The position numbers were made by a program, and so were the translations under genes. From a virus (lineage: Duplodnaviria > Caudoviricetes), in the IMG/VR virus record IMGVR_UViG_3300028025_000089: 64,000 bases of DNA; one strand, given 5' to 3'. The notes under the pieces were generated by a model. The model was not told the origin of the DNA and searched no databases. It saw nothing but the letters and a program-made list of their open reading frames with translations. Of this stretch, positions 23,547 to 56,348 are shown piece after piece. How positions within the stretch are numbered: position 1 is the first letter of the stretch; every line of letters starts with the position of its first letter.

Positions 23547-25916
23547 ATGGCTTACCAAAATATAAATCAATATAATTATCAAAAGTTAAAAATGCAAGTC
23601 ATTTATGACGGGCAAGATATGTCATTGGCTTCTGATGAGGTTGATTTTAACCAAGAAGTTGTGTTCTCACCCTTTTTAATTGCAATTGATAATGGAAAAA
23701 AACTTCCAATCTCGTTGAATCTTAATAGTCCATTAACAACACAAAACTTGAATTTAACGTATGGAGTTTATAATCCAAACAACGTTATTGTTTCTGAAAA
23801 TTTTTATCAACCCGACGATTTAAACTTAAATTGTTTTAGTGCAAATTCAACATGTGATATTGGATTAACAGGTATTGATAATGGATTGGTCACAAAAATA
23901 AAGGGTGATGACTTGTATTATACCAATGGTTTATTTAACGACATAGAAAAATTTGATAGATTATATTATGACAGACGTATGAAGTTTATTCAAACAACGA
24001 CAAACGTTCCTGATAATAATAAATTTTCGGGCATAACTGATTACACATATTATCAAATGGTTTCAAAAACAAGTCCAATATTTGGTAGATACGTTGAGTT
24101 ATATGGTGGATTTTATCAGGGGTTTTATAAGTTGTTTGGTTATGACTATGATATATTACCCGAAAGAATGAATAAAGGTTGGTCGGTTGAAATGTTGTTA
24201 AAACCTAGATTCATCGACGAATTTGCACCTCCATCGGGTTATACAACTTTAAATCAAATTTACCCTAATAATAAGAATACATTTTTTTATATGGGGGCAA
24301 GAGCCGAAAACAAATTTTATCATTATGCCGATGGTTCCCCAAAATGTGAACCAAGTTATGTTAGAATTACTTCGGGTTTAACAAAAGAAGAAACTTGTGC
24401 TTGTTGTAATTATGAAATTAAAAATAGTAGATGTATATACGTTTATCCACCAAGACCAAAAGGTGGTGTTTATGATCCACATGTAAATTATGGTTGTAAT
24501 TTATGTAAAGGTGATGATAATCAAAAAATTACTTGCGGATGTAAATGTTATGAATCTCCGTGTGAGACTTGTGGTTGGATGTGTTTTGATCATAAATGTA
24601 ATTCCATAATCGTTCCAACACCAACACCCACACCAACCCCATCACCAACGGTTCCTTGTGATACTTATCCTCAAATAATTCAATGCACCGTAACTCCTTC
24701 ATGTTGCACATCTTGTCAATCTTGTGGTTGTGATGTTTGTGGATGTCCTCCGAAATCGGCATCAACAACTTTTTCATCTGTGGAAGATACTTGTGAAAAA
24801 GATCCCAAGTTTGATGCGTTGTCTAATAACATATCTTTTAGATTGTGTGGTGATCCACAAAATCCTGGTATTGGTGTTCGAGCAATTAAAATCACGGGTG
24901 ATTGTATTACAACAGGAGAATGTATTACAGGTCAAACTTATGTGACAGGATACACCATAGTTGATATTTGCACCCCACCAATATATCCATATTGTTTAGA
25001 AGTTAATCCTGATTGGTTAGACGTAGAACATTGGTTTTTACTAAATGTGGTTTGGGAAAGATATACTTATTGGGATTATTGTGATTTAAGATGGTTCGGA
25101 GGTTTAGATGATATTACAAGAGTCGAATACCTTCAAAGTTTAGCAAACAATGCGGTGTCTTTAATTGGTCCACCATATACAAATGGTTATGAAGTTCCAG
25201 GTCAAATAGAAATTGTCCAGTTAAATCAAAGATGGTTAGACGACACCAAGTTTAGAATGGGTCGATTGAAGATTTATATAAATGGTCGAATATTCTATAC
25301 AATAGAAGACTTTGAAGAAGTTATACCTCGAGCGTTAGATACTGACAAAGAAAAACAAGTTGGAGTTCCTTTCAACATGTCATGGGGAGGTGGAACTCAA
25401 GGTCTTCACGAAAATCTAACATTAAACTTTTGTAATATATGGAATTACTCTGCTGGTAGTGTGACCACAAATATTTTATATGTCGATTGTAATGGAAATC
25501 CTGCAAGTTTAACCGGTTTAACAAATACGACTGGAAGTATAATAGTTGATAAAAATAACACACCAACAATAACAGTTCCTGATACTAATAATGCAGTTAG
25601 TTTTAGTGGCAATTACCATTTAAAAAGTGATGACTATAATCAAGATCCTGAATGTTTTCCTGAAAATATTTTAAGTGCGACTACCTTAAACAAACTTAAA
25701 ACACATATACTATTAGAAGAAAACTTTGCAGGAACTTTCGATGGGGCAATTTCACAGTTTAGATTTTATACAGAACCATTATCATCACCTGAAGTAAAAC
25801 ATAATTTCAAATTACTAAGAGACACATTTTATATGTTTGATCCTGATTGTCCAAATTGTGACTTGGCATCTTGTCTTCCAAATGATTTTACATACACTAT
25901 AATTAATAACGAATAA
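23547..25916 (+). CDS. LamG/concanavalin-like virion protein with large Cys-rich insertions
   Basis: GWSVEMLLKP, LKIYINGR, FDGAISQFRFYTEPLSSPEVKHNF (LamG C-terminal motif); 38 Cys. Confidence 0.65.
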   Translation: MAYQNINQYNYQKLKMQVIYDGQDMSLASDEVDFNQEVVFSPFLIAIDNGKKLPISLNLNSPLTTQNLNLTYGVYNPNNVIVSENFYQPDDLNLNCFSANSTCDIGLTGIDNGLVTKIKGDDLYYTNGLFNDIEKFDRLYYDRRMKFIQTTTNVPDNNKFSGITDYTYYQMVSKTSPIFGRYVELYGGFYQGFYKLFGYDYDILPERMNKGWSVEMLLKPRFIDEFAPPSGYTTLNQIYPNNKNTFFYMGARAENKFYHYADGSPKCEPSYVRITSGLTKEETCACCNYEIKNSRCIYVYPPRPKGGVYDPHVNYGCNLCKGDDNQKITCGCKCYESPCETCGWMCFDHKCNSIIVPTPTPTPTPSPTVPCDTYPQIIQCTVTPSCCTSCQSCGCDVCGCPPKSASTTFSSVEDTCEKDPKFDALSNNISFRLCGDPQNPGIGVRAIKITGDCITTGECITGQTYVTGYTIVDICTPPIYPYCLEVNPDWLDVEHWFLLNVVWERYTYWDYCDLRWFGGLDDITRVEYLQSLANNAVSLIGPPYTNGYEVPGQIEIVQLNQRWLDDTKFRMGRLKIYINGRIFYTIEDFEEVIPRALDTDKEKQVGVPFNMSWGGGTQGLHENLTLNFCNIWNYSAGSVTTNILYVDCNGNPASLTGLTNTTGSIIVDKNNTPTITVPDTNNAVSFSGNYHLKSDDYNQDPECFPENILSATTLNKLKTHILLEENFAGTFDGAISQFRFYTEPLSSPEVKHNFKLLRDTFYMFDPDCPNCDLASCLPNDFTYTIINNE

Positions 25917-27446
25917 ATGAGTCAGAGTATTGTAATCCAAAGTGTTTTTTATGATGGTGAATTGGCGGAAGTCTTATTCAAACCGGATAATGATGATGTT
26001 GTATTAAATTTTGGTCAAATAACTTTACCATTTTTATTTGAGCCATATTTACTAATCCCTGTAAGAGAAATTTATGGAACGTATACCATAAAACCAATTG
26101 ATTCATCTTGTCCTTATTTTTTAAATGTTCCTCGACCAACACCAACACCGACACCAACTATAACCCCAACAAAAACACCTACATCGACTCCGACACCTAC
26201 GCCAACACCTACACCAACATTTAACCCATGCTTATCGTCAACACCTTTACCAACACCTACTAAAACACCAACACCTACTATAACTCCGACCAGAACAAAC
26301 ACACCAACACCTACTTTAACACCAACATATACACCAACAACTACTTTAACACCAACAACCACGCCAACTATAACTCCAAGTCCTTCACCATCCGATTTAA
26401 TTGTTACAATTCATGTTAATGTAGTTCCTGGATCAATAGTAATTCAATCATTAGTCAACTATAACATTACTTTAGATTGTGATAGTTGTGTGGAATACAA
26501 TTGTGTTTTAGGAATGAATAATGGAACTAGAATGGTAATACCAAAATCAACTGATGTCTCATCAGGATCAACAACGGGATATAGTGAAACACATATTAGT
26601 GAAGATTATAGTATGTTGGATGGAAATGTATGGATAACTTCAGCTGAAGTTTCGGGTTATACAGGAAGTGTAAGCTATGATGTTGTTATTATAACAGATG
26701 TTACACCTACACCAACACCTACACCAACTCAAACACCTACACCAACGGCAAGTGTGGGTCTCACACCAACTATAACTCCTACATATACGTCTACGCCAAC
26801 TGTAACCCCAACTTATACAATTACACCAACTCAAACGCTAACAAATACTTCTATACCAACGCAAACACCGACAAATACTACTACTCAAACTCCAACGTAT
26901 ACACCAACGCCAACTCAAACTAATACGCCTACAGAAACTAACACACCAACACCGACACCTACAGAAACTAATACTCCAACGCCAACACAAACTAATACAC
27001 CGACACCGACACAAACAGAAACACCTACCAATACACCAACACCTACTAATACACCGACATATACACCAACACCAACTCAAACTAACACACCTACACCTAC
27101 GTCATCAGCATCTAACGCACCTACGTTATACTTTGGTAAATTACAAACACCTGACTTTACCGCAGGTCAAGAAACACAATTAAATAACATTCAGTCATTT
27201 AATTCAACAGATATTCATATTCCAATAGTCACTGGTAGTGGTTATGGATACTTGTTAATTCCATCATATATGAACCAACCATCACTTATGAGAAATAGTT
27301 CTGAAGGATGTGCTGGATTTGTTGTTCCAATTATTTCAAAACCTGACGTAACTATCCCTGACATTTTTGGCAACTCCACTATTTATAAAGTATATAGAAC
27401 CTATGTCTCTACTCACGCTGAGGTTGACTTGTGGTTATGTGTATAA
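25917..27446 (+). CDS. Pro-Thr (mucin-like) repeat virion protein
   Basis: Two long TPTPT(N/Q/E)T tracts separating small beta-rich domains. Confidence 0.75.
26130..26390 (+). repeat. Pro-Thr coding repeat, tract 1
   Basis: Degenerate acacca/acacct repeats in frame. Confidence 0.8.
26700..27100 (+). repeat. Pro-Thr coding repeat, tract 2
   Basis: Degenerate [11 protein letters not shown] units in frame. Confidence 0.8.
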
Positions 27447-27472: not shown

Positions 27473-28969
27473 ATGGCCGATTTTAGTAGTGTCGGTGGGG
27501 TTGGAATCATGGGTTTCATCTCCCCGATGGATACAAGAGATACGTATGCAGTTATTGATCCTTTATACGGGATTGATGGTATTAGAAACGTTGGGAGTGT
27601 AGAAGATCTTAGTGGGATTTCTTACGATCGTAGAAGATCGGGAATGATCGTAGGTATAGAAGGGGGAACACGGTATTTTAAACTAAAAGATGTTATTTGG
27701 TCTTTTGATATTAGTGATTGGGAAGAAATTTTCTTATACACAATTCCTCAATCGGCAATCACAACAAACAATATTACAGGAGGAACTGTAGATTACTCAA
27801 CTCAAACTTTAACTCTTACAACAAGTTCGGGTGATACAATTACGATTACAGGTATCACTGACACCTACATTACAGGAGGAACATATAACCAAGAAGATTC
27901 GACTTTAGAATTAATAAGTAATTACGGAACAAGTGTTGAAATTACTGGATTTTCGCAGTCAGTTAGTGTTTCGGCAAATACAGGGTTAGGTGTTGATTCA
28001 GGTTTTTTATATACAACATATAATACCCTTTTAGACCCTTCATTAGAAATGGCATCCACAATCGGAGGTCTTACGGCAGGAACATCAGTTTCAAATTTAT
28101 CAGGAAAAACAATTGTGTCAATTTTTGACGACATGCTTTTTCCAACTCAACAACCAACATATACAATACCAACAATTTCTATAAGTAATAATAACGCAAC
28201 AATAGAAGTTGGTTCAACATATAATAATACTTTAACGGCAACCGCAACTAAAAATACCGCAGGAAATTTCACATATTTAGAAATAATAAGAAACGGATCA
28301 ACGTCACTAACTTCAACCACTTCACCATTATCGGCAGTAACCACAAGTTTACCAAGTCAATATGGATATAGTGATCCAAATAATCCGAATTATAATTTTA
28401 CATTAACTTATAATGAAAGTTATGTGATACCAACAGGAGTAACAAGTTCATCAACAACATATAAAGCAAGAGGTAACTACAATAGTGGTTTACCAAAAAA
28501 TACAAACAAGGGGGTTAGTGATACAAGACCCGCACAAATTAGATCAACCAACGCACCTCAAGCAAGTTCAACATCTTTTGATTCATCATTAAAAACTATA
28601 ACGGGAATATTTCCTTATTATTATGGTAAAATGAATGTTGAACCAACAATCGAATCAGTTAGAGAATCAATTTTAAATGGAACTGCAAGTAAAGTTTTAT
28701 CAAGTGCTTCAGGAAATCTTCAAATAACTTTTAACGCATCAACCGAATTTTTATGGTTTGCACATTTGGCATCTTATGGGTTAAAAACTCAATGGTATGT
28801 GGCGGCGGATAATAAAGGTCTAATGTCTAATTCAAGTTTGTTTGATACAGGTGCAAATGGTCTTGTTAGTAGTGAATTAGGTTTTTGGTCAAACGCAAAT
28901 TTTTATATTTATTTAGGAAATTACAAAACGACACTAAACACAATAACTTTGGGTAACGGATTATTTTAA
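27473..28969 (+). CDS. Thr/Ser-rich tail/fibre-associated structural protein
   Basis: 498 aa, beta-strand and Thr-rich composition; N-terminal RRRSGMIV motif; in late operon. Confidence 0.55.
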   Translation: MADFSSVGGVGIMGFISPMDTRDTYAVIDPLYGIDGIRNVGSVEDLSGISYDRRRSGMIVGIEGGTRYFKLKDVIWSFDISDWEEIFLYTIPQSAITTNNITGGTVDYSTQTLTLTTSSGDTITITGITDTYITGGTYNQEDSTLELISNYGTSVEITGFSQSVSVSANTGLGVDSGFLYTTYNTLLDPSLEMASTIGGLTAGTSVSNLSGKTIVSIFDDMLFPTQQPTYTIPTISISNNNATIEVGSTYNNTLTATATKNTAGNFTYLEIIRNGSTSLTSTTSPLSAVTTSLPSQYGYSDPNNPNYNFTLTYNESYVIPTGVTSSSTTYKARGNYNSGLPKNTNKGVSDTRPAQIRSTNAPQASSTSFDSSLKTITGIFPYYYGKMNVEPTIESVRESILNGTASKVLSSASGNLQITFNASTEFLWFAHLASYGLKTQWYVAADNKGLMSNSSLFDTGANGLVSSELGFWSNANFYIYLGNYKTTLNTITLGNGLF

Positions 28970-28972
28970 GAC

Positions 28973-29698
28973 ATGGCAATATTAATTAATGATAATTTAA
29001 ATCCACTAGCACCCAAGATCTTAGATAACAGGTTTGGACCTTATACCTCGACCACTGAGGCGAACCTTTCGATTGATTTAGCGTTTAGAGTAGTTGGTTT
29101 AACTGTCGGTGTATTGTCTGGTAACACAACCTATTCAGGTGGTCGTTATGTTTCAGCATCTGAAGGTATTGTTGAATATTGGTATTACACAGGAATTACC
29201 GATTCTGATTTAGTTTTAAAATCCGATTGCACCGCTCAGTGTGGAGATCCAAATTTCGTTGATAAAGAAGTTTTATATCCTGTTGATGGTGTAAATAAAA
29301 TATTCACATTACGATATACGCCTGAATATAATTCTCAAGACATATATTATAATGGACTTTTACAAAAAGAAGGTCTTGATGCCGATTACACAATTGTTGG
29401 AAGAACAATAGAGTTTAATGTTGCACCATTTGCAAATAGTAGATTATTAGCGTCATATAGAACATACTCTGAAATTAACTTTGTTGATAATGAAACACCT
29501 ATGGGTGTAGTTGATGGAGTGAATACCATATTTGAATTGTCTATTACACCAATTGAGGGTAGTGACCACCTGTATTTAAATGGTTTATTACAAGACGAAG
29601 GTCTTATGTTTGACTACGATCTTACGGGTAGAATAATAACATTTAATATTGCACCACCAATCGGTAGTATAATATTATGTTCATACAGATTTAATTAA
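28973..29698 (+). CDS. Virion protein with two tandem NGLLQ-x-x-G-x-DY beta-domains
   Basis: DGVNKIFTL...YNGLLQKEG..DY and DGVNTIFEL...LNGLLQDEG..DY. Confidence 0.6.
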   Translation: MAILINDNLNPLAPKILDNRFGPYTSTTEANLSIDLAFRVVGLTVGVLSGNTTYSGGRYVSASEGIVEYWYYTGITDSDLVLKSDCTAQCGDPNFVDKEVLYPVDGVNKIFTLRYTPEYNSQDIYYNGLLQKEGLDADYTIVGRTIEFNVAPFANSRLLASYRTYSEINFVDNETPMGVVDGVNTIFELSITPIEGSDHLYLNGLLQDEGLMFDYDLTGRIITFNIAPPIGSIILCSYRFN

Positions 29699-30230: not shown

Positions 30231-32687
30231 ATGGCTACTACTAAAATAGTTTTAGACTTACAATCGGATTTGTTGTTAACTAATGCACAAATCTATAACC
30301 CAACAGGTATTGAAGCCGCTAACATCGAGTATGGTGTAGGTAACGTTGCCGATGAGTTAATCAATTTATCAACCGCAGACTCAGTTGAAGAGGCTGCAAG
30401 AATCTCTGGTGATAATTCAGTTGCCGCTAACTTATCAACTGAAGTTGTTAACAGATCAACTGCTGTATCTACTGAAGCATCTTTAAGAGTTTCTGGTGAT
30501 TTATCATTGGATAATGCGTTAGATGCTGAAGAATCTGCAAGAATCTCAGGTGACTTATCTTTAACAACAAGAGTATCTAATGAAGAAGTTGTAAGAGCAT
30601 CTGCCGATACATCTATCGTTAATTATGTTGACGCTGAAGTAACTACATTAGAAAATGCTGACGCATCTTTAACAACAAGAGTATCTAATGAAGAAGTTGT
30701 AAGAGCATCTGCTGACGCATCTATCGTTGCGACTATCTCAGCTAACAATTCTGCAGATCAATCATTAGCAACTAGATTATCTCAAGAAGAATCTAACAGA
30801 GCATCTGCCGATACATCTATCGTTAATTATGTTGACGCTGAAGTAACTACATTAGAAAATGCTGACGCATCTTTAACAACAAGAGTATCTAATGAAGAAG
30901 TTGTAAGAGCATCTGCCGATACATCTATCGTTAATTATTTAGATGCTGAAGTTTCTGCTGAAGAGTCTGCAAGAATCGCTGGTGACGCATCTTTAACAAC
31001 AAGAGTATCTACTGAAGAGGCTAACAGAGCATCTGCTGATACATCTATTGTTAACTACGTTGATGGTGAAGTATTATCTATTGATTCTGCTTTATCTTCT
31101 GAAACTTCATCAAGAGTATCAGGTGACGCATCTTTAACAACAAGAGTATCGACTGAAGAATCTACAAGAACTTCTGCTGACACATCTATCGTTACTTATT
31201 TAGACGCTGAAATCGCTGATGAGGCATCTGTAAGAGCATCTGCTGACGCATCTATCGTTGCGACTATCTCAGCTAACAATTCTGCAGATCAATCATTAGC
31301 AACTAGATTATCTCAAGAAGAATCTAACAGAGCATCTGCAGACGCATCTATCGTTACTTACTTAGACGCTGAAGTTTCTGCTGAAGAATCTGCAAGAATC
31401 TCAGGTGATGCATCTTTAACAACAAGAGTATCTACTGAAGAATCTGCAAGAACTTCTGCTGACGCATCTATCGTTACAAGTTTAGATTCTGAAATCACCG
31501 CAAGACAATCTGAGGATTTAGTATTATACAACACTTTTAGTTCAGAAGATTCTATCGAAAAAGCGGCTAGAGAATCTGCAGACGCTTCTATCGTGACTTA
31601 TGTTGACGCTGCTGATGCTAGTCTACAAGACGCGATCAATGCTGAAGCAACTGCGAGATCAAATGCTGACGCCTCTATCAACACAAGAGTATCTACTGAA
31701 GAATCTGCAAGAGCGGCTGCTGACGCATCTATCGTTACTTATTTAGATGCTGAAGTTTCTACTGAAGAATCTGCAAGAATCGCAGGTGATGCATCATTGA
31801 CTACAAGAGTATCAACTGAAGAATCTGTAAGAGCTTCTGCTGACGCATCTATCGTTGCGACTATCTCAGCTAACAATTCTGCAGATCAATCATTGGCAAC
31901 TAGATTATCTCAAGAAGAATCTAATAGAGCATCTGCCGATACATCTATCGTTACTTACTTAGACGCTGAAATCGCTGATGAAGCATCTGTAAGAGCATCT
32001 GCTGACACATCATTAGAAAGTGAATTGGCAACTACTGAGACATCTATCAACACTGCAATTTCTACTGAAACTTCTGCTAGAATTTCTGGTGATGCATCGT
32101 TAAATTCTAAATTAGATCTTGAAGTTGCCGATTTAAATGATCAAGTTTCTACTGAAACTTCATTAAGAGAATCTGCTGATAATTCATTGTTTGTTAACTT
32201 GAATGATAAAATCGTTGTTGAAACTTCTGAAAGAGTATCTGCCGATAATTCATTGTTTGTTAACTTGAATGATAAAATCAATACTCAAATTTCTACTGAA
32301 GAGTCCTCAAGAATTTCAGGTGATGCGTCATTGGCTTCGTCTTTATCTTCGGCTGTTGAAACATTAGAAAATGCAGATTTGGCCGAAAAATCAAGCAGAG
32401 AATCTGCTGACGCTTCATTAGCAGCTCAGATTTCCGCAATCAACGCTTCTGATTTTGGTAAAACTGCACCAGGTTCACAACCTAATGGAACAACAACAAA
32501 CTTTAATATTAATCCACAACTTGTTAATAACACCGAGTTCGTATATCTTAACGGTCTACTTCAGGAAGCAGGTGAGGATTATACTACGTCTGTTGATTCA
32601 CAAACAGGTAACATTGCAACAATCGTGTTCGCAAATGCACCTAAAGCGGGTTCTAAATTACAAGTTGCAGGTAACGTAGTTGCTTAA
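30231..32687 (+). CDS. Long repeat coiled-coil fibre protein with C-terminal NGLLQ beta-domain
   Basis: About 700 aa of E-x-x-x-R-x-x-(A/G)D-x-S(I/L) repeats; own promoter motif and terminator. Confidence 0.75.
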   Translation: MATTKIVLDLQSDLLLTNAQIYNPTGIEAANIEYGVGNVADELINLSTADSVEEAARISGDNSVAANLSTEVVNRSTAVSTEASLRVSGDLSLDNALDAEESARISGDLSLTTRVSNEEVVRASADTSIVNYVDAEVTTLENADASLTTRVSNEEVVRASADASIVATISANNSADQSLATRLSQEESNRASADTSIVNYVDAEVTTLENADASLTTRVSNEEVVRASADTSIVNYLDAEVSAEESARIAGDASLTTRVSTEEANRASADTSIVNYVDGEVLSIDSALSSETSSRVSGDASLTTRVSTEESTRTSADTSIVTYLDAEIADEASVRASADASIVATISANNSADQSLATRLSQEESNRASADASIVTYLDAEVSAEESARISGDASLTTRVSTEESARTSADASIVTSLDSEITARQSEDLVLYNTFSSEDSIEKAARESADASIVTYVDAADASLQDAINAEATARSNADASINTRVSTEESARAAADASIVTYLDAEVSTEESARIAGDASLTTRVSTEESVRASADASIVATISANNSADQSLATRLSQEESNRASADTSIVTYLDAEIADEASVRASADTSLESELATTETSINTAISTETSARISGDASLNSKLDLEVADLNDQVSTETSLRESADNSLFVNLNDKIVVETSERVSADNSLFVNLNDKINTQISTEESSRISGDASLASSLSSAVETLENADLAEKSSRESADASLAAQISAINASDFGKTAPGSQPNGTTTNFNINPQLVNNTEFVYLNGLLQEAGEDYTTSVDSQTGNIATIVFANAPKAGSKLQVAGNVVA
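30594..30916 (+). repeat. Exact 119-bp direct repeat (30594-30712 and 30798-30916)
   Basis: Read directly from the sequence; offset 204 nt (68 codons). Confidence 0.85.
30698..31936 (+). repeat. 111-bp direct repeat, three copies (30698-30808, 31229-31339, near-identical 31826-31936)
   Basis: Encodes VRASADASIVATISANNSADQSLATRLSQEESNRASA. Confidence 0.85.
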
Positions 32688-33945: not shown

Positions 33946-33946
33946 A

Positions 33947-45711: not shown

Positions 45712-46638
45712 GTGAAAGAAATTTGTTTAGACATATCAGATTGTAGAGCGTTAGGTGATACTTTATGTGCAACCCCAACGATTAGAAAACTATATCACTC
45801 TTATGGAAAAAAAATTTCTGTAATCACACATTATCCTGAATTGTTTTATAACAATCCATATGTTTTAGAAATTTTTGATAATTCAAAAAATAAAGAAGAA
45901 TTATCAGATCATGAAATTTTTTCAACTTTCGACATTTCATACAAAGAAAATGGTGTTTGTAATAAACATAACACAATTGATATTAGACAATTTCACGCAA
46001 TTAATCTTGGGTTTATGTTAACCAAAAATGAGATGACCTTAGATTATTTTCCAAATGATGTGTCATTACCTGATCTACCAAAAAAATATGTTTTAATTCA
46101 TCCCGTTCAAAATTGGGAATCAAGAACTTGGCCAATAAAAAATTGGCAAATGTTAACACAGTTGTTAAATGAAAAAGGGATTCATGTTATTTCTGTTGGT
46201 AAAGATTCTTCTGAATTGGGAGGGTCTAATGTTGATAAACCTGTTTTTGATTTTCCAATTAAGTTGGGATATAACTTAATGAATCAAACTTCAATAGATC
46301 AAACTTGGCATTTAATAAATAATAGTTCTTGTTTTGTGACTATGGATTCGGGTCTTTTACATTTAGCGGGAACAACAGATGCCGAAATAATACAATTAGG
46401 AAGTTCAATCGATCCTGAGTTTAGATCACCATATAGAAATGGTAGTCAAGAATATAAGTATCATTATGTTAGTGGTGGTTGTGGTTTACATTGTGCCTCA
46501 GATATGAAATATGGTGTTCGTGAGTGGGGATCAATACAAGGTATACCTTCTTTAGTAAAATGTTTAGAAAGAAAAGAAACTTTTGAATGTCACCCAAATA
46601 TCTTATCGGTATACAATAAAATTTTAGAAATAGTTTAA
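45712..46638 (+). CDS. GT9-family (heptosyltransferase-like) glycosyltransferase
   Basis: ALGDTLCATPTIRKL, LIHP..SRTWP, FVTMDSGLLHLA; GTG start. Confidence 0.8.
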   Translation: MKEICLDISDCRALGDTLCATPTIRKLYHSYGKKISVITHYPELFYNNPYVLEIFDNSKNKEELSDHEIFSTFDISYKENGVCNKHNTIDIRQFHAINLGFMLTKNEMTLDYFPNDVSLPDLPKKYVLIHPVQNWESRTWPIKNWQMLTQLLNEKGIHVISVGKDSSELGGSNVDKPVFDFPIKLGYNLMNQTSIDQTWHLINNSSCFVTMDSGLLHLAGTTDAEIIQLGSSIDPEFRSPYRNGSQEYKYHYVSGGCGLHCASDMKYGVREWGSIQGIPSLVKCLERKETFECHPNILSVYNKILEIV

Positions 46639-46992: not shown

Positions 46993-48237
46993 ATGAAAAT
47001 ATTTGTTCAAATCGCGTCGTATCGCGACCCTCAGCTTATACCAACAATAGAAAATATGTTGGAGAATGCCAAAAGACCAAAAAACATTGTAATTGGTGTG
47101 GCAAGACAATTTCATCCTGAAGATGGTTTTGATGATCTATCCAAGTATGAAAAAGATAAAAGATTTAGAATCCTAAATATTCCTTACACAGAATCAAAAG
47201 GAGTTTGTTGGGCAAGACATCAAGTTCAACAACTATATGGTGGTGAAGAATATACCCTTCAGATCGACTCTCACATGAGATTTGAAAAGAATTGGGATGA
47301 CGAAATGATTAAAATGATTAAACAACTTCAAAAGAAAGGTCATAAGAAACCTTTATTAACGGGGTATGTTTCATCTTTTGATCCTGAAAACGATCCTGCA
47401 GGTAGAGTTACTGAACCATGGAGAATGGTTTTTGATAGATTCACTCCTGAAGGTGTTGTATTCTTTTTACCTGAAACTATTCCAGGTTGGAAAGAAATGA
47501 AAGAACCAATTCCGGCAAGATTCTATTCTGCACATTATTGTTTTACGTTAGGTGAATTTTCAACCGAAGTTCAACATGATCCTGAATTTTATTTTCACGG
47601 AGAAGAAATTTCAATTTCAGTAAGAGCATATACTCACGGTTATGATTTATTCCACCCACATAAAGTTCTTGTATGGCACGAATATACAAGAAAAGGTAGA
47701 ACAAAACAATGGGACGATGATAAAGAATGGCATTTAAGAAATACCGCATGTCATATTAAAAACAGACAACTTTTAGGAGTTGATGGTGAAACGTTTAATG
47801 GTGATTACTCTGAATGGTTTGGAACTGAAAGAACCGTTCAAGATTACGAAAAATATGCTGGTATTCGTTTTGAAACAAGAGGGATTCAACAAGAAACAAT
47901 AGATAAAAAATATCCACCAAACACATATAATTTTGAAACCGAACAAGATTGGAAAAATTCATTCTCAACAATTTTCAAACATTGTATTGATATAAACTAT
48001 GTTAGTGTTCCTGAAAAAGATTATGAATATTGGGTAGTTGCTTTCCACGATGAAAATGACGAAACATTATATAGAAGAGATGCCGACATTAATGAAATCA
48101 ACGGATTCTTCAGAGACCCTGATGGGTATTGTAAAGTGTGGAGAGAATTCAACACAACTAAAAAACCTAAGTATTGGGTTGTATGGCCTTACTCAACTTC
48201 TAAAGGATGGTGTGATCGATTAACAGGAAATTTATAA
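46993..48237 (+). CDS. GT60-family polypeptide/hydroxyproline N-acetylglucosaminyltransferase-like protein
   Basis: IFVQIASYRD, SKGVCWAR, LQIDSHMRF (DSH motif), FHGEE, AYTHGYDLFHP. Confidence 0.85.
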   Translation: MKIFVQIASYRDPQLIPTIENMLENAKRPKNIVIGVARQFHPEDGFDDLSKYEKDKRFRILNIPYTESKGVCWARHQVQQLYGGEEYTLQIDSHMRFEKNWDDEMIKMIKQLQKKGHKKPLLTGYVSSFDPENDPAGRVTEPWRMVFDRFTPEGVVFFLPETIPGWKEMKEPIPARFYSAHYCFTLGEFSTEVQHDPEFYFHGEEISISVRAYTHGYDLFHPHKVLVWHEYTRKGRTKQWDDDKEWHLRNTACHIKNRQLLGVDGETFNGDYSEWFGTERTVQDYEKYAGIRFETRGIQQETIDKKYPPNTYNFETEQDWKNSFSTIFKHCIDINYVSVPEKDYEYWVVAFHDENDETLYRRDADINEINGFFRDPDGYCKVWREFNTTKKPKYWVVWPYSTSKGWCDRLTGNL

Positions 48238-48241
48238 TAAC

Positions 48242-49819
48242 ATGGCAAATATTTCGTTTTACGGTTCCCACAATGCCGCTGTAGTTGTGGAGGATCAAGG
48301 AAAAATTATTACAGTAATAGAGGTAGAAAGATTTTTAACTCAAAAAAATGCAGGTTATTCACAATATTTAGTATCATATTCAAGACCTTTTTTATTAAAA
48401 CATATTATACAATATATTAAAGATGAGTTTGGTATTTCTGAATTTGATAAATGTTATTACTTAAATTCTGATACGGTAGAAGGATCTGAAAAAGTTCATT
48501 ATCAAGAATTAATACCAGCAAAAGAATACATCAATTCATTACACCATTTAAGTCATGCTGCTTGCGGATTCTATCAAACGGATTATAATGAAGCGTTAAT
48601 CATTTCTTTTGATGGTGGAGGTAATGACGGGTTCTTCAATGTTTATCACGCTGAAGATAGAAATAACATAAATGTAGTTGAGAAATTCAATATTGATTTA
48701 GGATTTCCATATATGTCATTTGGTGATTACTTGGGTGACATTACAAAAGAACCGGCACTTAATATTGGTAATTTAGTTTATGCAGGAAAAATAATGGGTC
48801 TTTGTTCGTATGGAAATGTGAACGAAGAATGGTTACCACATTTTGAGGAATACTATAGAAGAAAACCAGATGGTTTAAATTACTTACAATACCTACAAGA
48901 ACTTAGTGAACAAACAGGTTTATCATTTGATATGGAAAATCGAATGTCAGGTCAGTTAGGGTGGGATGTTGCTAAGACATCACAAATTGCATTTGAGAAT
49001 GTTTTTATGGAATTGGCTCAACCGTTTTTAGATCAATTCCCTAATATTCCTTTGATTCTTGTTGGTGGATGTGCGTTAAATATCTTGTTAAACACAAAAT
49101 TACACCAAGAACTTAATAGACCTGTGTTTGTTCCACCAAATCCTAATGATTGTGGAATTGCAACAGGTATGATGTTAAATCACATTAAACCTGAAAAGGC
49201 AATTGATATTACTTATGCGGGTATTGGTATTTTAGACAAACACACATTAATGTCTCATGTAGAAGAACGACACGCTCTTCCTCTTAAAACTGAAATGTTA
49301 GTTGATGATTTAGTAGATGGTAGAATTGTTGGGGTTGTCAGAGGTAATGCCGAACATGGACCAAGAGCTTTAGGAAATAGAAGTATTATTTGTAATCCAG
49401 CCTACGAAAACATGAAAGACATTTTAAATGCAAAAGTAAAAAATAGAGAGTGGTATAGACCATTTGCGCCTGTTTGTAAATTAGAAGATGTATCTAAATA
49501 TTTTAATTTCGAAGGTGAGAGTAAATGGATGGGATTTTGCCCAACGGTAAAAGAAGAATGGAGAGAAAAATTAGTTTCAATTACACATGTTGACGGGACT
49601 GCGAGAGTTCAAACAGTTACAGAAGAACAAAATCCTTGGTTATATAATTTATTAACCGAATTTGAGAAAAAATCAGGAATTGGTGTTTTATTAAACACAT
49701 CTTTCAATGTAAACGGAAAACCAATTCTTTCTCGATATAGTGATGCGATTTGGGTTTATGATAAAACAGAAATGGATTGTCTTTTATTAGGTGATTATTA
49801 TTTTAGAAAAAGAGCATGA
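48242..49819 (+). CDS. Carbamoyltransferase (NodU/CmcH/TobZ family)
   Basis: HHLSHA, DGGG, GKIMGL, GGCALN, PNDCG, GPRALGNRSI, REWYRPFAP, HVDGTARVQTV, LNTSFN. Confidence 0.95.
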   Translation: MANISFYGSHNAAVVVEDQGKIITVIEVERFLTQKNAGYSQYLVSYSRPFLLKHIIQYIKDEFGISEFDKCYYLNSDTVEGSEKVHYQELIPAKEYINSLHHLSHAACGFYQTDYNEALIISFDGGGNDGFFNVYHAEDRNNINVVEKFNIDLGFPYMSFGDYLGDITKEPALNIGNLVYAGKIMGLCSYGNVNEEWLPHFEEYYRRKPDGLNYLQYLQELSEQTGLSFDMENRMSGQLGWDVAKTSQIAFENVFMELAQPFLDQFPNIPLILVGGCALNILLNTKLHQELNRPVFVPPNPNDCGIATGMMLNHIKPEKAIDITYAGIGILDKHTLMSHVEERHALPLKTEMLVDDLVDGRIVGVVRGNAEHGPRALGNRSIICNPAYENMKDILNAKVKNREWYRPFAPVCKLEDVSKYFNFEGESKWMGFCPTVKEEWREKLVSITHVDGTARVQTVTEEQNPWLYNLLTEFEKKSGIGVLLNTSFNVNGKPILSRYSDAIWVYDKTEMDCLLLGDYYFRKRA

Positions 49820-50703
49820 AAACAAAATTAGTAACTGCGTTTTATACTGATATTATTGGGTTTCCTTTTTTTGGTCACGAGTCCTTTGCAAGACATGAAC
49901 GTTATTTACATTCATTAAGAACTTTAAACAATATGAATACAGAAATTGTTTGTTATTGTAATGACACTCAATATGATTTAATGACCAAATATTGTGAAGA
50001 ATTTAATTTGACTAATGTAACGATTAAGATTTCAAACCTTAGAGATTATCCAAAAACAAATAGAATGTTAGAATTAAAAAGATCTAACGATCAATTTAAT
50101 TTTTATCATGAAGTTGATTGGAATAAGTTATATCTTCTTTCTAAAGAGTATGATGAATTTTATGATTATATTTATTGGATTGACTGTGGTTTATCTCACC
50201 GTGGTTTATTCACTTTAAAATACAATCCACACTCCGATAAAATTACAGGTTTATCAAGAGATTGGGAAAACTATTCATTCACAAATATATTTTGTCCTGA
50301 ATTATTTCCAAAGATAAATAATTGGGTAGGTGATAAATTAATCAATTTGGCAAACACTATGTTTTCCCACAACCCAAACGAAATTAGATCTGTTTATAAA
50401 AATAACAACGATTACAAACACATGTCAGTTGGTGGTATTTTAGGGGGACACATTTCAAAATTAAATTGGTTCATAGAACAATTTGATAGAATAAGTGATA
50501 TAAGTTTAAATGAAAATTTTATATTAAATCACGAAGGTATGATAACAGATTTAGAGTTTGAAAATCCTGAAATGTTTAAAACTTATAGTTTTGACACTTG
50601 GTATCATGATGACTTTTGGCTTACAACACCGATTTTCGATAGAGAATCAATTAAAAATAAAACACACTTCGTTCATTTTTTTGAAAAGGAGTTAGGAATT
50701 TAA
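49816..50703 (+). CDS. HtrL/WlaTC-like glycosyltransferase
   Basis: KLVTAFY, YIYWIDCG, VGGILGG, E-G near the C-terminus. Confidence 0.6.
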   Translation: MKTKLVTAFYTDIIGFPFFGHESFARHERYLHSLRTLNNMNTEIVCYCNDTQYDLMTKYCEEFNLTNVTIKISNLRDYPKTNRMLELKRSNDQFNFYHEVDWNKLYLLSKEYDEFYDYIYWIDCGLSHRGLFTLKYNPHSDKITGLSRDWENYSFTNIFCPELFPKINNWVGDKLINLANTMFSHNPNEIRSVYKNNNDYKHMSVGGILGGHISKLNWFIEQFDRISDISLNENFILNHEGMITDLEFENPEMFKTYSFDTWYHDDFWLTTPIFDRESIKNKTHFVHFFEKELGI

Positions 50704-50712: not shown

Positions 50713-53091
50713 ATGGAAGATTTTTTTGATAAGGTATTACACTATTATGGCAGAAAGGGCCAAAAACTATTTATGATCAACATTGGTGCCATGGACGGTG
50801 TTATGTTTGATAGTATGAGCGGTTATGCTCAAATATACAATTCAGATGTATTATATGTTGAACCAATGAAACCTCATTTTGAAAGATTGGTAGAACATAA
50901 AAGTAATAACCCTGGAAATAAATTTGAAAATTCGGCGATTAGCGATTTCAATGGGACTATTACTATGAAAACAATTCCAATTGAGGTTGTTGACGAAGGT
51001 TTAGTTCATCCTGCTTTTTATGGTATGAGTGTGATTGATCCTACTAAAAATGGTATGGGTAGTGAAGGTGACAGAGAGGTTGTTGAAAAATATGCCGTTG
51101 ATGTTGAGGTAAATTGCATCACATGGGATACTCTTGTTCAAAGACACAATATAGAACATTTTGATGTGTTGTCAGTGGATACTGAAGGACATGATTATAC
51201 AATTTTTAAACAAATTGATTTACAAAAATTTAGACCTAGTCTGATTAGATTAGAGTGGTGTAATATGACTGATGAAGAAAAAACTAACATTACAAATAAA
51301 TTTACAGATGCTGGATATGTTTATGAAATATTAGGTAATATGGATATTGATGCAATTAGAAAAGATGTTTACGATGAAATAGAATTATCTTTAAATCCTG
51401 TAAAACCAAAAGAAGAAAAATCAAAATCAAGACTTACCATTGTTACTGGTTTATGGAACATTAAAAGAGAAGAATTAAGTGAAGGTTGGTCAAGATCTTA
51501 TGAACACTACTTAGAAAAATTTTCACAGTTATTAGATACATCTTGTAATATGATAATTTTTGGTGATTCAGAATTAGAAAGTTTTGTTTTTTCTAAAAGA
51601 AGTCATGAAAACACACAATTTATTAATAGACCACAATCGTGGTTCAAAGGAGAATTCTATGATAAAATTCAAGAAATTAGAACAAATCCTGAATGGTATA
51701 ATTTGGCAGGTTGGTTAAAAGACTCCACACAGGCTAAATTAGAAATGTATAATCCGCTTGTAATGTCAAAAATGTTTTTATTACACGATGCGGTTATATT
51801 AGATAAATTTGATTCTCAAAAATTATTTTGGTTAGATGCTGGAATTACAAACACAGTGAATCCAGGTTATTTCACACATGATAAAGTTTTAGATAAGGTG
51901 GAAAATTTATTTGATCGTTTCACATTTGTTGCATTCCCTTACGAAGCAGACAAAGAGATTCATGGATTTGATATTGACGCAATGACCGAAATGGTTGGTC
52001 AAAGAGTTAATAAAGTTTGTCGTGGAGGTTTCTTTGGTGGATCTAAACCAATGATTAGAGAAATGAACACTCTATATTACGACTTAATGAAAACTACTTT
52101 AAGTAGAGGTCTTATGGGAACTGAAGAAAGTTTGTTTTCAATTATGACATATACAAACCCAAACAATATTGATTATGTAGAAATTGAGTCTAATGGGTTA
52201 TTATATAAGTTTTTTGAGGACGTTAAAAACAATAATGTAGAAATTAAAAGTTTTAGAAAGGGAACCCCAACCAAAGTTAGAAATGGAGATGTTGGTTTAT
52301 ATGTAATTACATTCAACAGTCCTAAACAATTTGAGACGTTAATTAATTCTATGTATGCTTATGATGAAGATTTTATTCATAAAACAAAGAAATTTTTATT
52401 AGACAACTCAACTGATTTATCTACCACACCAAAATATTTGGAACTGTGTGAAAAATATGGTTTTGAACACATCAAGAAAGATAATATAGGTATTACGGGA
52501 GGTCGTGTGTTTGTTGCCGAACATTTCCACGAATCAAATATGGATTACTATATGTTCTTCGAAGATGATATGTTTTTCTACAATGGACAAGATTTTACTT
52601 GTAAAAATGGGTTTATGAGAAAAACTAAAAATTTATACGAAAAAGTTTTACAAATTTCTAAAAAAGAAAATTTTGATTTCTTAAAATTTAACTTTACAGA
52701 ATTTTATGGTAGTCATGAAAAACAATGGGCGTGGTATAATGTTGATCAAGAGTATAGAAATACTATTTGGCCTGATAACCCAAAACTTCCTGTAAACGGT
52801 CAAGATCCAAATGCTCCTTATTTAGAATATAAAAATATTAAATCATATGAAGGGACACCTTACGCCACGGGTGAAGTTTATTTATCAAATTGGCCGATAA
52901 TTTTATCTAAAGAAGGAAACTACAAATGTTATATTGAAACTAAATACACCTATCCTTACGAACAAACTTTAATGTCACATTGTTATAAAGAAATGAAGAA
53001 AGGAAAAATACATGCGGGAGTTCTTCTTATGACACCAACCGAACACGATCGTTTCGAGTTTTATGAAGGTGGGTTAAGAAAAGAATTTTAA
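50713..53091 (+). CDS. Fusion: FkbM methyltransferase + HtrL/WlaTC-like GT + GT-A-like domain
   Basis: INIGAMDG, YVEP, LSVDTEGHD; TIVTGLW, SKMFLL, FWLDAG, GGFFGG, GTEES; YMFFEDD. Confidence 0.75.
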   Translation: MEDFFDKVLHYYGRKGQKLFMINIGAMDGVMFDSMSGYAQIYNSDVLYVEPMKPHFERLVEHKSNNPGNKFENSAISDFNGTITMKTIPIEVVDEGLVHPAFYGMSVIDPTKNGMGSEGDREVVEKYAVDVEVNCITWDTLVQRHNIEHFDVLSVDTEGHDYTIFKQIDLQKFRPSLIRLEWCNMTDEEKTNITNKFTDAGYVYEILGNMDIDAIRKDVYDEIELSLNPVKPKEEKSKSRLTIVTGLWNIKREELSEGWSRSYEHYLEKFSQLLDTSCNMIIFGDSELESFVFSKRSHENTQFINRPQSWFKGEFYDKIQEIRTNPEWYNLAGWLKDSTQAKLEMYNPLVMSKMFLLHDAVILDKFDSQKLFWLDAGITNTVNPGYFTHDKVLDKVENLFDRFTFVAFPYEADKEIHGFDIDAMTEMVGQRVNKVCRGGFFGGSKPMIREMNTLYYDLMKTTLSRGLMGTEESLFSIMTYTNPNNIDYVEIESNGLLYKFFEDVKNNNVEIKSFRKGTPTKVRNGDVGLYVITFNSPKQFETLINSMYAYDEDFIHKTKKFLLDNSTDLSTTPKYLELCEKYGFEHIKKDNIGITGGRVFVAEHFHESNMDYYMFFEDDMFFYNGQDFTCKNGFMRKTKNLYEKVLQISKKENFDFLKFNFTEFYGSHEKQWAWYNVDQEYRNTIWPDNPKLPVNGQDPNAPYLEYKNIKSYEGTPYATGEVYLSNWPIILSKEGNYKCYIETKYTYPYEQTLMSHCYKEMKKGKIHAGVLLMTPTEHDRFEFYEGGLRKEF

Positions 53092-53624: not shown

Positions 53625-53644
53625 TACTAAATGGTCTTTTGTTG

Positions 53645-53652: not shown

Positions 53653-53664
53653 GAAAAAGATTAA

Positions 53665-54468: not shown

Positions 54469-54471
54469 AAC

Positions 54472-54479
54472 TATTTATA
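54472..54479 (+). promoter_or_regulatory. Putative late promoter TATTTATA
   Basis: 12 nt upstream of ATG at 54492. Confidence 0.55.
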
Positions 54480-54491
54480 AAATAAAAAACT

Positions 54492-56348
54492 ATGGCACTA
54501 ACAGGTAAAACAATTGGAGAATTAGAATATCTACAATTCCCAACAAATGAAACTTTAATTCCAGTACAATATATTGGGGACACTTATCATATTACATTTT
54601 CTTCGATAACATATAACGAAGGGACATATGCACAGTTTGTTGCAGAAGCAGGAGCCGGTGTTCTTACACCAGGTAGATTTTATTTGATGACAGATTATCA
54701 GGCCATTTATGACCAACCTAACTATGATAATTTCAAAACTCCCATCTTTACAGGTAACAGTATGACAGGTATTACCGAACCATTATTATTACTTGCAATA
54801 TCAGAAACGCAGTTTTCACCTACGGTATATTCAACATTATATCCTCAAGATCAAATAACATATGATATAACTTGGAATACGACTGAAATCTCAAGCACAC
54901 CAGCAAAAGGTAGGATTACAGAAAGAATTGACATATACAACAACAGAACAGACTACGATCATAGAAATATTTTATTTAAAAGATATCGCGGGTATTCATA
55001 TGATCAAAATAATCCACTGAGTGGTCTTGTAGGGATAAGTGGTATAACAGGAAATACTGGTGTATTATATGGAAACACAGGAACAACATTTAATTCAAAC
55101 TTATTTGTTGGAAGTTATATTGCGGTGAGAAATTTAAATCCATATATTTTTGAAGTTATTTCAGTTGAGAGTGATTCTCTTGCTACAATATCAGGTGTAA
55201 CTATAAGTGAAACTAATGACTCATCTTATTATTACGGAAATGACGATGGGATAATGAGTTATTACCAAGCAAATGTAAGACAAGATTTAGTTTATGAATA
55301 CACAACATTTGGTGATGCCATTGATGATAATGGTGCTGTAAATAATTATGTTGGTAATTACTCAAATCTTTATTTATACGAAGGGGTTGGAAACTTTTTA
55401 TTGGCAAATAATGTATTCTTAGTGGGTGCTTACAGAAACAACACTATTGGTGACGGATCTCGTAATAATACATTTAACGATGATTGTTATGATAACCAAA
55501 TAGGGTCTAATTTTTATAACAACTCCACAAATGATGATTTTGATAGTAATATAATCGGTGATAATTTCCGTGACAATTTTATTACCGCTAATTTCCAACG
55601 AAACAGAATTGGTTATAATTTTTATGATAATATTTTAACAGGATCTGATTTTTACAGAAACAATATCGGAAATGATTTTAATGGAAATGTTTGTAATAAC
55701 AACGACTTTCAAAATAATGAGATAGGAAATCAATTTAACAATAATGAAATTTATAATAATTTTTATAAAAATGACATAGGTAATGGTTATAACGGTAACA
55801 ATATCTACAGTGATTTTTATGGTAATTTGATTGGGAACGGATATAATAATAATACTATTTATACGAGTTTTAGAGATAATGTAATTGGTGATTATTTTGA
55901 TAATAACACAATTGGTGACAATACAAACATCGGAGGATTTTCGTTTTATTTAAATAATATCGGGTATTACTTCCAAAGTAACATTATATTAGGAACCTTT
56001 GCCTATAATGAAATAGGTAGTAATTTCCAAAATAATAATATTGGTGACGGATTTGGGTTTGGGATTTCTACAAGTCAAGGAAATAAAATAGGAAATTATT
56101 TTTACAATAATATAATCGGTGAATATTTTTATAATAATGTGATTGCAGATGGATTTTATTTTAACACAGTAGTTGATTTTTTCCAATTAAATGATGTAAA
56201 ATTTTCATTATTTTCTACCGATTTTAGCACATCAACATATGTTTATGGTGACTATAATTGCACTTTATTTAAAAACTCGGTATTATCCCCAAGACTTTCT
56301 TACTTTGACGGGTCGGATACTTTGATGGTAGTTAATGTGACCGATTAA
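54492..56348 (+). CDS. Putative tail fibre/spike with Asn-ladder beta-solenoid
   Basis: About 9-residue N-x-IG-x-x-F-x-x repeats over roughly 55400-56180. Confidence 0.65.
   Translation: MALTGKTIGELEYLQFPTNETLIPVQYIGDTYHITFSSITYNEGTYAQFVAEAGAGVLTPGRFYLMTDYQAIYDQPNYDNFKTPIFTGNSMTGITEPLLLLAISETQFSPTVYSTLYPQDQITYDITWNTTEISSTPAKGRITERIDIYNNRTDYDHRNILFKRYRGYSYDQNNPLSGLVGISGITGNTGVLYGNTGTTFNSNLFVGSYIAVRNLNPYIFEVISVESDSLATISGVTISETNDSSYYYGNDDGIMSYYQANVRQDLVYEYTTFGDAIDDNGAVNNYVGNYSNLYLYEGVGNFLLANNVFLVGAYRNNTIGDGSRNNTFNDDCYDNQIGSNFYNNSTNDDFDSNIIGDNFRDNFITANFQRNRIGYNFYDNILTGSDFYRNNIGNDFNGNVCNNNDFQNNEIGNQFNNNEIYNNFYKNDIGNGYNGNNIYSDFYGNLIGNGYNNNTIYTSFRDNVIGDYFDNNTIGDNTNIGGFSFYLNNIGYYFQSNIILGTFAYNEIGSNFQNNNIGDGFGFGISTSQGNKIGNYFYNNIIGEYFYNNVIADGFYFNTVVDFFQLNDVKFSLFSTDFSTSTYVYGDYNCTLFKNSVLSPRLSYFDGSDTLMVVNVTD

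Follow-up and report, generated by a model that had tools for sequence, protein, structure and literature searches.

In the present study, a 64,000-nucleotide stretch of the IMG/VR virus record IMGVR_UViG_3300028025_000089 (Caudoviricetes), hereafter the window, was analysed for a block of genes in which glycosyltransferases of several families alternate with genes encoding long, repetitive proteins rich in Ser and Thr. The original prediction, which was made from the sequence alone, had described positions 23547-56348 as a candidate system for the O-glycosylation of virion proteins. We read the block as a predicted cytoplasmic protein-glycosylation system that the phage encodes for its own fibres, and we give this reading a probability of about 0.6. 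The window has a G+C content of approximately 30%, and its genes are densely packed. It encodes a family-B DNA polymerase whose nearest relatives in isolated phages share only 23-32% identity, indicating a lineage without a cultured close relative. The IMG/VR contigs of relatives reach 270-373 kb, which marks the source as an uncultured jumbo phage.

Transferases and fibre genes at the locus

Three candidate initiating enzymes, each lying beside a distinct type of fibrous protein, are encoded in the block (Table 1). First, the 976-residue fusion combines a GT4 domain (residues 198-353), a TibC/Aah-type domain (residues 407-745) and an FkbM methyltransferase domain (residues 785-922), and is convergent with the gene for a collagen-like fibre, with 2 base pairs between the two. 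TIGR04414, the NCBIfam equivalog for autotransporter O-heptosyltransferases (BAHT), scores 290.4 bits on residues 407-745 against a cut-off of 200, and TibC itself (4RAP) is matched at E 4.2e-63, so that the Aah/TibC-like enzyme proposed at 42728 was recovered. The TibC structure assigns Asp-110 the role of catalytic base, with contacts from Thr-226 and Lys-230 to the beta-phosphate and from Trp-305 to heptose O4, and an iron finger formed by Cys-339, 342, 358 and 370 (PMC4358343). Their counterparts here are D475, T590, K594 and W665, together with C700, C703, C717 and C729, and none of these varies among 52 distinct phage homologues. TibC owes its ADP specificity to Arg-286, which makes contact with adenine N1 and whose replacement by alanine inactivates the enzyme; Pro-300 (Ser in Aah) sets the heptose stereoselectivity (PMC4358343). 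At the position of Arg-286 the 52 homologues carry Val (31), Thr (11), Ser (4), Leu (3), Ile (1) or Arg (1), and at that of Pro-300 they carry Gly (29), Ser (20), Pro (2) or Ala (1). Judged from these residues, the TibC-type domain looks active and TibC-like in architecture, with a different nucleotide pocket. Because Arg-286 is replaced, the donor nucleotide may differ, and heptosylation is only a putative activity. In other words, the fusion appears to work like a BAHT. As for its donor sugar, the adjoining GT9 gene, an HldE-domain-II-like gene and a GmhA-like gene present in only one of five related genomes point towards heptose, whereas the lost Arg and the GDP-sugar genes of the phage point elsewhere.

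The collagen-like neighbour of the fusion consists of four Gly-X-Y tracts, a 539-residue central domain, a repeat region and a conserved C-terminal knob. The tracts sum to 1094 residues, close to the roughly 1090 residues of GTS, GTN and GSS triplets expected at 35742. Position X is Thr in 76% or Ser in 21% of the triplets, and position Y is Ser (53%), Asn (40%) or Asp (7%). The long, uninterrupted Gly-X-Y runs typical of PF01391 are present, whereas the imino acids typical of collagen are nearly absent, with one Pro among approximately 730 X and Y positions. No sequence match to the central domain was found in the Protein Data Bank (PDB). The last approximately 130 residues, conserved across many fibres, gave a confident AlphaFold 2 (AF2) model with a predicted local distance difference test score (pLDDT) of 73-90, and they are the only usable part of a model of the last 479 residues that is poor overall (pLDDT 56). 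This knob resembles small phage capsid and portal-vertex chains (Pam3, Adjutor, Patience, HFTV1 and FCWL1; Z 7.4-9.0), and its sequence matches a "neck fiber" at E 0.003; the protein may equally well be a head or neck fibre or a tail fibre. The repeat region preceding the knob was modelled as all-beta and solenoid-like, resembling adhesin and tailspike helices, at a pLDDT of 31-57, so this resemblance carries little weight. As a separate observation, Asn occupies position Y in 144 triplets and is nearly always followed by Gly-Thr or Gly-Ser, which gives rise to about 140 N-x-S/T sequons; the window showed no HMW1C-type N-glycosyltransferase.

Second, two tandem DUF2827 genes are convergent with the gene for the 818-residue fibre, and a J-like gene lies just upstream of them in the same orientation. 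The PF10933 matches, at E 3e-95 (32743-33990) and 9e-74 (33947-35095), agree with the two DUF2827-like enzymes originally proposed there; the first of these probably starts at the ATG at 33945, giving a protein of 400 residues, as in relatives. A sequence search of the PDB gave no match for DUF2827, and the J-like protein had no Pfam match at E 0.01. In the 818-residue fibre, hydrophobic, Ser/Thr and acidic residues each recur every 3.6 residues when Ala is excluded from the hydrophobic class (counting Ala gives a period of 2.0). This period within an 18-residue repeat fits a non-heptad coiled coil, and the Ser/Thr-rich coiled coil foreseen at 30231 was thus found again. DUF2827 genes, often in two or three copies, lie beside trimeric autotransporter adhesins in Burkholderia, Veillonellales and Pasteurellales and are predicted to encode cytoplasmic glycosyltransferases (bioRxiv 10.64898/2026.01.22.700529). 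By sequence, the arrangement in the window appears to be of this kind, with tandem copies beside a long fibrous protein.

Third, a GT60 enzyme, also among the original assignments (46993; PF11397 E 8.2e-71), opens a module that ends in two paralogues with Thr/Pro tails. Homologues with 43-46% identity to it occur in the jumbo phages XacN1, Xoo-sp13, CM1 and RAS14, where the annotation calls them glycosyltransferase or hypothetical protein or leaves their sequence unannotated. In XacN1 the GT60 gene is accompanied by carbamoyltransferase and GT9 genes and adjoins baseplate-wedge genes and a gene for a 3313-residue protein that is not Ser/Thr-rich. No solved structure was matched in a PDB sequence search with GT60. 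Within the module, the 295-residue protein at 49816-50703 had no match to a profile hidden Markov model (HMM), and its BLAST match to the HtrL domain was not significant (E 0.81); the HtrL_YibB clusters nearest to it come mostly from giant viruses. The tailoring enzymes had been listed as GT4, GT9, two HtrL-like proteins, two FkbM domains and a carbamoyltransferase; HMMs bear out this list except for the second HtrL, which has an embedding match only. The two paralogues share a 135-residue N-domain which, across the family, may stand alone, carry poly-Thr or Thr/Pro tails, or carry such tails and distal domains of up to 709 residues; the paralogue at 53665 contains 21% Thr and 11% Pro, and that at 53118 also carries a Thr/Pro tail. 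The AF2 model of the N-domain (pLDDT 79) gave phage baseplate chains as its top four VIA matches, including the N-domain of TP901-1 ORF48 (BppU), at Z 7.1-7.7, which is within noise. The Atlas offered BppU_N (PF10651) as a lead (0.84) without a Pfam match, and Foldseek gave only generic Ig matches.

The 509-residue protein belongs to phrog_15511, a family of unknown function (E 1.5e-20), and its gene adjoins that of the 789-residue Cys-rich protein in relatives as well. The Pro-Thr tracts noted at 25917, 53118 and 53665 were borne out by sequence and composition. The 241-residue protein matches phrog_11431, a virion structural protein (E 4.8e-9), and contains two copies of a small beta-type domain which also terminates the 818-residue fibre. 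The 618-residue Asn-rich protein, present in some relatives, had no HMM match; by eye, its repeat of about 5 residues (x-N-F/I-x-x) resembles a pentapeptide-like beta-helix. Transferase and acceptor-type genes are really interleaved as described, and all coordinates hold. The range 23547-56348 also stands, with the amendment that glycan genes continue to the left on the minus strand to approximately 6.8 kb, adding seven further transferases and a GDP-mannose dehydratase. The window thus encodes roughly fifteen or more transferase domains, plus enzymes for sugar synthesis and tailoring. In the left part, the small nucleotidyltransferase at 10326 scores 73.5 bits with TIGR02199, below the cut-off of 181.5 and nearly tied with the glycerol-3-phosphate cytidylyltransferase TIGR01518 (65 bits). 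A NeuD/PglB/VioB family match of 47.9 bits lies in the sugar-tailoring trio, and the GT4-like gene has a weak match to Pfam Glyco_trans_1_4.

Other observations concern the surroundings of these genes. The DegT-type open reading frame (ORF) at 11761-12360 (minus strand) has 199 residues and covers about one third of the family profile. The gene is possibly truncated or split, within a sugar pathway that otherwise looks intact. The glycan genes are interspersed with genes for PhoH, a dUTPase/dCTP-deaminase-like protein, a stand-alone PolB-type exonuclease and a small WYL-domain protein (9590-10324, 18207-19534 and 21476-21856, minus strand). In a 720-residue ORF at 60752-62914 (minus strand), complete Fe/Mn superoxide dismutase domains occupy residues 171-359 and are flanked by long further parts on the N- and C-terminal sides. 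The motif ATATTTAT, considered as a late-promoter lead, was not enriched in the window (13 sites versus 15.7 expected); its sites precede the polymerase and fibre genes alike and therefore say nothing on timing.

Table 1. Features of the glycan and fibre gene region, in order of position in the window
Feature	Coordinates	Strand	Evidence
GT2 glycosyltransferase at the left end of the extended glycan block	6823..7629	-	Pfam Glyco_tranf_2_2 and Glycos_transf_2, E ~5e-8
Small nucleotidyltransferase, best match HldE domain II (heptose-1-phosphate adenylyltransferase)	10326..10769	-	PF01467 E 2e-12
GDP-mannose 4,6-dehydratase	10773..11747	-	PF16363 E 1.7e-115; TIGR01472 383 bits (cut-off 415)
DegT-type aminotransferase fragment, hexapeptide acetyltransferase, TylF-type O-methyltransferase	11761..13659	-	DegT E 3e-14; Hexapep E 2e-7; TylF E 1e-15
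S-adenosylmethionine methyltransferase, GT2, 140-residue ORF, GT11 (fucosyltransferase family), GT25, double GT2	13663..18183	-	Pfam matches
GT4-like glycosyltransferase beside dUTPase and exonuclease genes	19538..20749	-	phrog_7162 glycosyltransferase E 3e-46
789-residue Cys-rich protein (38 Cys), 12-residue linker; first gene of fibre operon	23547..25916	+	Sequence, composition
509-residue protein, two long Thr/Pro mucin-like tracts (Thr 25%, Pro 15%)	25917..27446	+	Composition
498-residue Ser/Thr-rich protein (Ser+Thr 27%) and 241-residue protein	27473..29698	+	Composition; PHROG
818-residue Ser/Thr-rich fibre	30231..32687	+	18-residue repeat, 3.6-residue periodicity; Ser+Thr 26%
Two tandem DUF2827, predicted cytoplasmic glycosyltransferases	32743..33990, 33947..35095	-	PF10933 319.6 and 248.9 bits (cut-off 25)
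184-residue J-domain-like protein (contains CHPDK)	35099..35653	-	Nearest Atlas clusters PF00226 DnaJ, 0.95
2327-residue collagen-like fibre	35742..42725	+	Pfam Collagen (PF01391) E 3.5e-147; PHROG tail-fibre families, E to 5.6e-128
976-residue fusion: GT4, TibC/Aah-type domain, FkbM methyltransferase	42728..45658	-	HMMs; TibC structures 4RAP/4RB4
GT9 (heptosyltransferase-family) enzyme	45712..46638	+	PF01075 E 6e-17
GT60 / PF11397 "GlcNAc" transferase	46993..48237	+	239.7 bits (cut-off 21), E 8.2e-71
NodU-like O-carbamoyltransferase	48242..49819	+	N and C domains
295-residue protein, possibly HtrL-like	49816..50703	+	Language-model match to HtrL clusters, 0.97
FkbM, HtrL_YibB and a further C-terminal part	50713..53091	+	PF09612 44.7 bits (cut-off 24.1)
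Two paralogues, 168 and 267 residues	53118..54468	+	Conserved 135-residue N-domain ending CC, then Thr/Pro tails
618-residue Asn-rich protein, last gene before the DNA polymerase	54492..56348	+	Sequence

Gene linkage among related phages

The association of each transferase with its neighbouring fibre was followed in related viral loci. A relative of the TibC-type fusion is encoded in 150 viral stretches, of which 79 loci were examined; for GT60, the best 80 loci of 364 viral relatives were taken; and DUF2827 has 12 viral relatives, all fairly close (55-98% identity). The linkage figures below were obtained with ad hoc composition thresholds on related genomes and measure association, not independence, and in the co-occurrence counts several loci share one contig.

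For the fusion, collagen-like ORFs were found at 51 of 103 loci, compared with 4 of 63 loci that have GT60 only. In loci with at least 54% identity, the collagen-like ORF is mostly next to the fusion or a few genes off and often encodes a giant protein of 1,700-3,200 residues; such an ORF also occurs near the fusion in distant loci (L061 and L074/75). A clade with 47% identity has no collagen and carries, beside GT9, the gene for a protein of 1064-1070 residues composed of Cys-rich modules and long Thr/Pro tracts. The most constant partner of the fusion is GT9 (50 of 79 loci). When loci were collapsed at 90% identity, a collagen or Thr/Pro-tract gene was the immediate neighbour of the fusion in 11 of 42 clusters, against a chance expectation of approximately 6% from a baseline of 9/286 (binomial P ~4e-5). 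Single-linkage clusters at 70% and 55% had poorly chosen representatives, and these rows were set aside. The baseline was taken from a near-complete relative, G002 (IMGVR_UViG_3300023174_000042; 93% complete, 272.6 kb, 286 ORFs), in which only 9 of the 286 ORFs are collagen-like or have Thr/Pro tracts, and five of these nine fall within the enzyme block of about 20 ORFs (hypergeometric P ~1e-4). Three more Thr/Pro-tract ORFs of the same genome lie outside the main block, at 62161-67178 and 188615-189949.

The pairing with collagen also extends to an isolated phage. The Microcystis phage Mel-JY01 encodes a TibC-type domain with 47% identity in a 1226-residue protein, and a Gly-Thr-Ser/Gly-Ser-Ser collagen frame of at least 1016 residues lies 1.7 kb upstream of this gene. 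In the record (L172, PP395634.1) the collagen frame, at 2-3052 on the plus strand, runs off the record start; two minus-strand coding sequences are annotated over it and only its last 177 residues are called on the plus strand. Probably this frame is mis-annotated, or the gene spans the record ends. In a distant relative (L059, 14400-16250, plus strand) a gene near the fusion resembles, by eye, that of a GlmS-type glutamine-fructose-6-phosphate aminotransferase, which would feed UDP-GlcNAc synthesis.

The other two enzymes keep different partners. The J-like gene, DUF2827 and the convergent coiled-coil gene stand together in 11 of 12 viral loci, and their order is kept despite differing flanks, with the polymerase in L082 and unrelated genes in L083/84. 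The constant position of the J-like gene upstream of DUF2827 suggests that host Hsp70 might be recruited for the folding or glycosylation of the fibre. Thr/Pro-tract ORFs were found at 97 of 104 GT60 loci versus 17 of 62 fusion-only loci. The order recurring at about 80 loci is GT60, one to five variable genes, FkbM-HtrL, one or two members of the 168/267-residue family, and the polymerase. Thus, the neighbourhood comparison called for at the outset gave each candidate initiating enzyme its own fibre class, with the exceptions described below.

The gene content between GT60 and FkbM-HtrL, which varies among relatives, bears on a further explanation, namely that the transferases act on proteins of the host or on small molecules, or are for the most part inactive cargo of a hypervariable island. 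The differences in this cassette from phage to phage and the truncated aminotransferase ORF speak for it. However, the catalytic residues of the fusion are invariant across its 52 homologues and GT60 is 74-100% identical among the best 80 of the 364 relatives, and this conservation argues for strong purifying selection. We regard the cargo explanation as improbable.

A proposed route of fibre glycosylation and its alternatives

Family membership, the conserved catalytic residues, the gene linkage and the absence of membrane and export components were obtained directly. By a simple hydropathy scan, no membrane segment was predicted in any glycan enzyme of the window, and no flippase, polymerase, ligase, priming polyprenyl-phosphate transferase, or ABC or other exporter was detected in the 64 kb. 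These absences count against the idea that the gene set remodels the host surface (lipopolysaccharide (LPS) core, O-antigen or capsule), for example as a superinfection block or to alter adsorption, with the fibre genes as mere neighbours. The idea draws on the presence of GT9, GT25, GT11, GT2 and HtrL/YibB enzymes with a dehydratase, an aminotransferase and an acetyltransferase, all of them classic LPS and O-antigen families, on PHROG labels of "GtrB-like O-antigen conversion" for several enzymes, and on relatives that keep the enzymes when an acceptor-like gene is absent nearby. However, the GT9 at 45712 scores far below all LPS heptosyltransferase equivalog cut-offs, the TibC-type domain passes a protein-specific one, and the linkage of fibre and enzyme genes exceeds the genome-wide baseline. 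Remodelling of the host surface would also leave the fibre linkage unexplained. It seems unlikely to us, though less so than the cargo explanation.

Some or all of the transferases might instead put sugars on phage DNA and so evade restriction. Glycosylation of phage DNA is described as common and diverse (as cited in PMC12619734; PMC13326640), and in the window a dUTPase/dCTP-deaminase-like gene and an exonuclease gene lie between glycosyltransferase genes at 18.2-19.5 kb, with a GT4-like gene beside them. A thymidylate-synthase-family enzyme is encoded in four of five related genomes, but its ThyA-family matches of 179-317 bits across the profile are like those of ordinary thymidylate synthases and cannot tell a synthase from a hydroxymethylase. 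Moreover, no DNA substrate for TibC/Aah, GT60 or DUF2827 was found in the literature examined, approximately fifteen transferases with methyl, carbamoyl and acetyl tailoring would be much for one base modification, and the linkage is to fibre genes and not to nucleotide metabolism. DNA as the target is about as improbable as the cargo explanation, and most conceivable for the GT4-like gene beside the dUTPase and exonuclease genes.

For glycosylation of the phage's own fibres, we propose the following route, in which the targets, sugars and purpose are what we infer. Phage enzymes (GDP-mannose 4,6-dehydratase, the aminotransferase fragment, the acetyltransferase and the HldE-domain-II-like nucleotidyltransferase) would supply unusual activated sugars, and three soluble initiating transferases would each act on the fibre encoded beside it. 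The TibC-type domain would modify Ser of the low-proline collagen-like fibre or of its C-terminal repeat region; DUF2827, aided by the J-domain co-chaperone, would modify the 18-residue-repeat coiled coil; and GT60 would modify the Thr/Pro stalks on proteins with the BppU_N-like N-domain. The glycans might then be extended by the GT4, GT9, GT2, GT11, GT25 and HtrL-like enzymes and capped by the FkbM/TylF methylases, the carbamoyltransferase and the acetyltransferase, and the glycosylated fibres would be assembled into the virion. The purpose could be protection against proteases or shear, stabilisation of a collagen helix without proline, or adhesion.

The proposal of fibre glycosylation is partly supported, by gene linkage, and several points weigh against the route. 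The enrichment of acceptor-like neighbours is moderate after near-duplicates are removed, much of the linkage is synteny inherited among related phages, and in the examined loci the frequency of acceptor-like genes is 16% for the next gene and still 8% at distances of seven genes and beyond, a modest local gradient. Nothing acceptor-like lies within 10 kb of the fusion in the clades L033-35 and L055-59, a Thr/Pro-tract ORF is missing from seven GT60 loci, and the tailed family includes tailless members. Weak matches are the basis for placing the Thr/Pro-tailed and coiled-coil proteins in the virion. The residue equivalent to Arg-286 is V646 in the window and Val, Thr or Ser in 46 of the 52 homologues. 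The neighbour of the TibC-type gene is no autotransporter, and the solenoid-like fold that might liken the two comes from the low-scoring repeat model. Finally, GT9, GT25, GT11 and HtrL are typical LPS families. In sum, the coat of glycosylated fibres built by several initiating transferases, as first suggested, draws partial support from linkage across phages, and host-surface and DNA targets are less likely alternatives for part of the gene set.

On a wider view, which is speculative and which we hold well below the route itself and a little above remodelling of the host surface, a widespread uncultured and apparently aquatic jumbo-phage lineage might run three parallel cytoplasmic O-glycosylation pathways, each initiator being paired with its own fibre class. 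Dense Ser/Thr glycans might here replace (hydroxy)proline in collagen, and the donor of the TibC-type enzyme might be a non-ADP sugar, possibly from the GDP-sugar genes of the phage. If fibre glycosylation is true, virion glycosylation, documented for giant viruses and a few mycobacteriophages, would extend to a large group of environmental jumbo phages, and enzyme families would be newly tied to phage particles. DUF2827 would also gain its first candidate substrates, and the TibC-type domain would be a natural variant whose nucleotide pocket is altered. The collagen-like fibre would be a test case for glycosylation stabilising a collagen helix that lacks proline. Sugar coats on fibres would further bear on host range, on the survival of particles in the environment, and on the recognition of phages by antibodies and lectins.

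Comparison with known systems

In the literature searched, no description was found of a TibC-type enzyme, DUF2827 or GT60 in phage virion glycosylation, or of a collagen-like phage fibre with a heptosyltransferase or glycosylation; the original prediction likewise knew of no characterised system that combines these features. A 2025 survey of aquatic jumbo phages reports several core glycosyltransferases and lists virion glycosylation as one possibility (PMC12619734).

The closest characterised counterparts are the TibC/TibA and Aah/AIDA-I systems, whose enzymes modify Ser of an adhesin (eLife 2014, PMC4358343). A BAHT transfers heptose from ADP-heptose to Ser and forms a dodecameric ring (PMC4358343). 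The phage domain lies above the equivalog cut-off for these enzymes and keeps the catalytic Asp, the Thr, Lys and Trp contacts and the four Cys, and the phage enzyme is by prediction likewise soluble and cytoplasmic and is encoded directly beside a long, repetitive, Ser-rich fibre. Unlike TibC and Aah, it is phage-encoded and fused between GT4 and FkbM domains, with Val in place of Arg-286, and Gly or Ser in place of Pro-300 in most homologues. The BAHT substrate is the beta-helical passenger of an adjacent autotransporter, whereas the phage neighbour is a collagen-like fibre.

The DUF2827 genes resemble the bacterial DUF2827/adhesin loci in that tandem copies stand beside a long, presumably trimeric fibrous protein. 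In contrast to those loci, the phage partner is a coiled-coil fibre with an 18-residue repeat and a J-like gene completes a conserved trio; both systems are known by prediction. The polypeptide alpha-GlcNAc transferases of family GT60 act on hydroxyproline of Skp1 in Dictyostelium (Gnt1) and on mucin Thr in Trypanosoma cruzi. The phage enzyme appears comparable in its strong PF11397 match and in the Thr/Pro mucin-like tracts near its gene at most loci, whereas it comes from a phage and its acceptor and its use of UDP-GlcNAc are predicted.

Among viruses, mycobacteriophages encode glycosyltransferases that act on extensions of their own structural proteins (Freeman et al. 2023, as cited in PMC12619734). 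According to that summary, one or two transferases act there on the C-termini of capsid and tail-tube subunits, whereas the phage studied here has some fifteen or more transferases of other families, with sugar synthesis and tailoring, linked to dedicated fibres. Outside the tailed phages, the fibrils of Mimivirus and the collagen-like BclA of the Bacillus exosporium are surface proteins decorated through virus- or cell-encoded sugar pathways, to which the block described here may be compared. The phage collagen differs in having no Pro- or Lys-type acceptor motifs.

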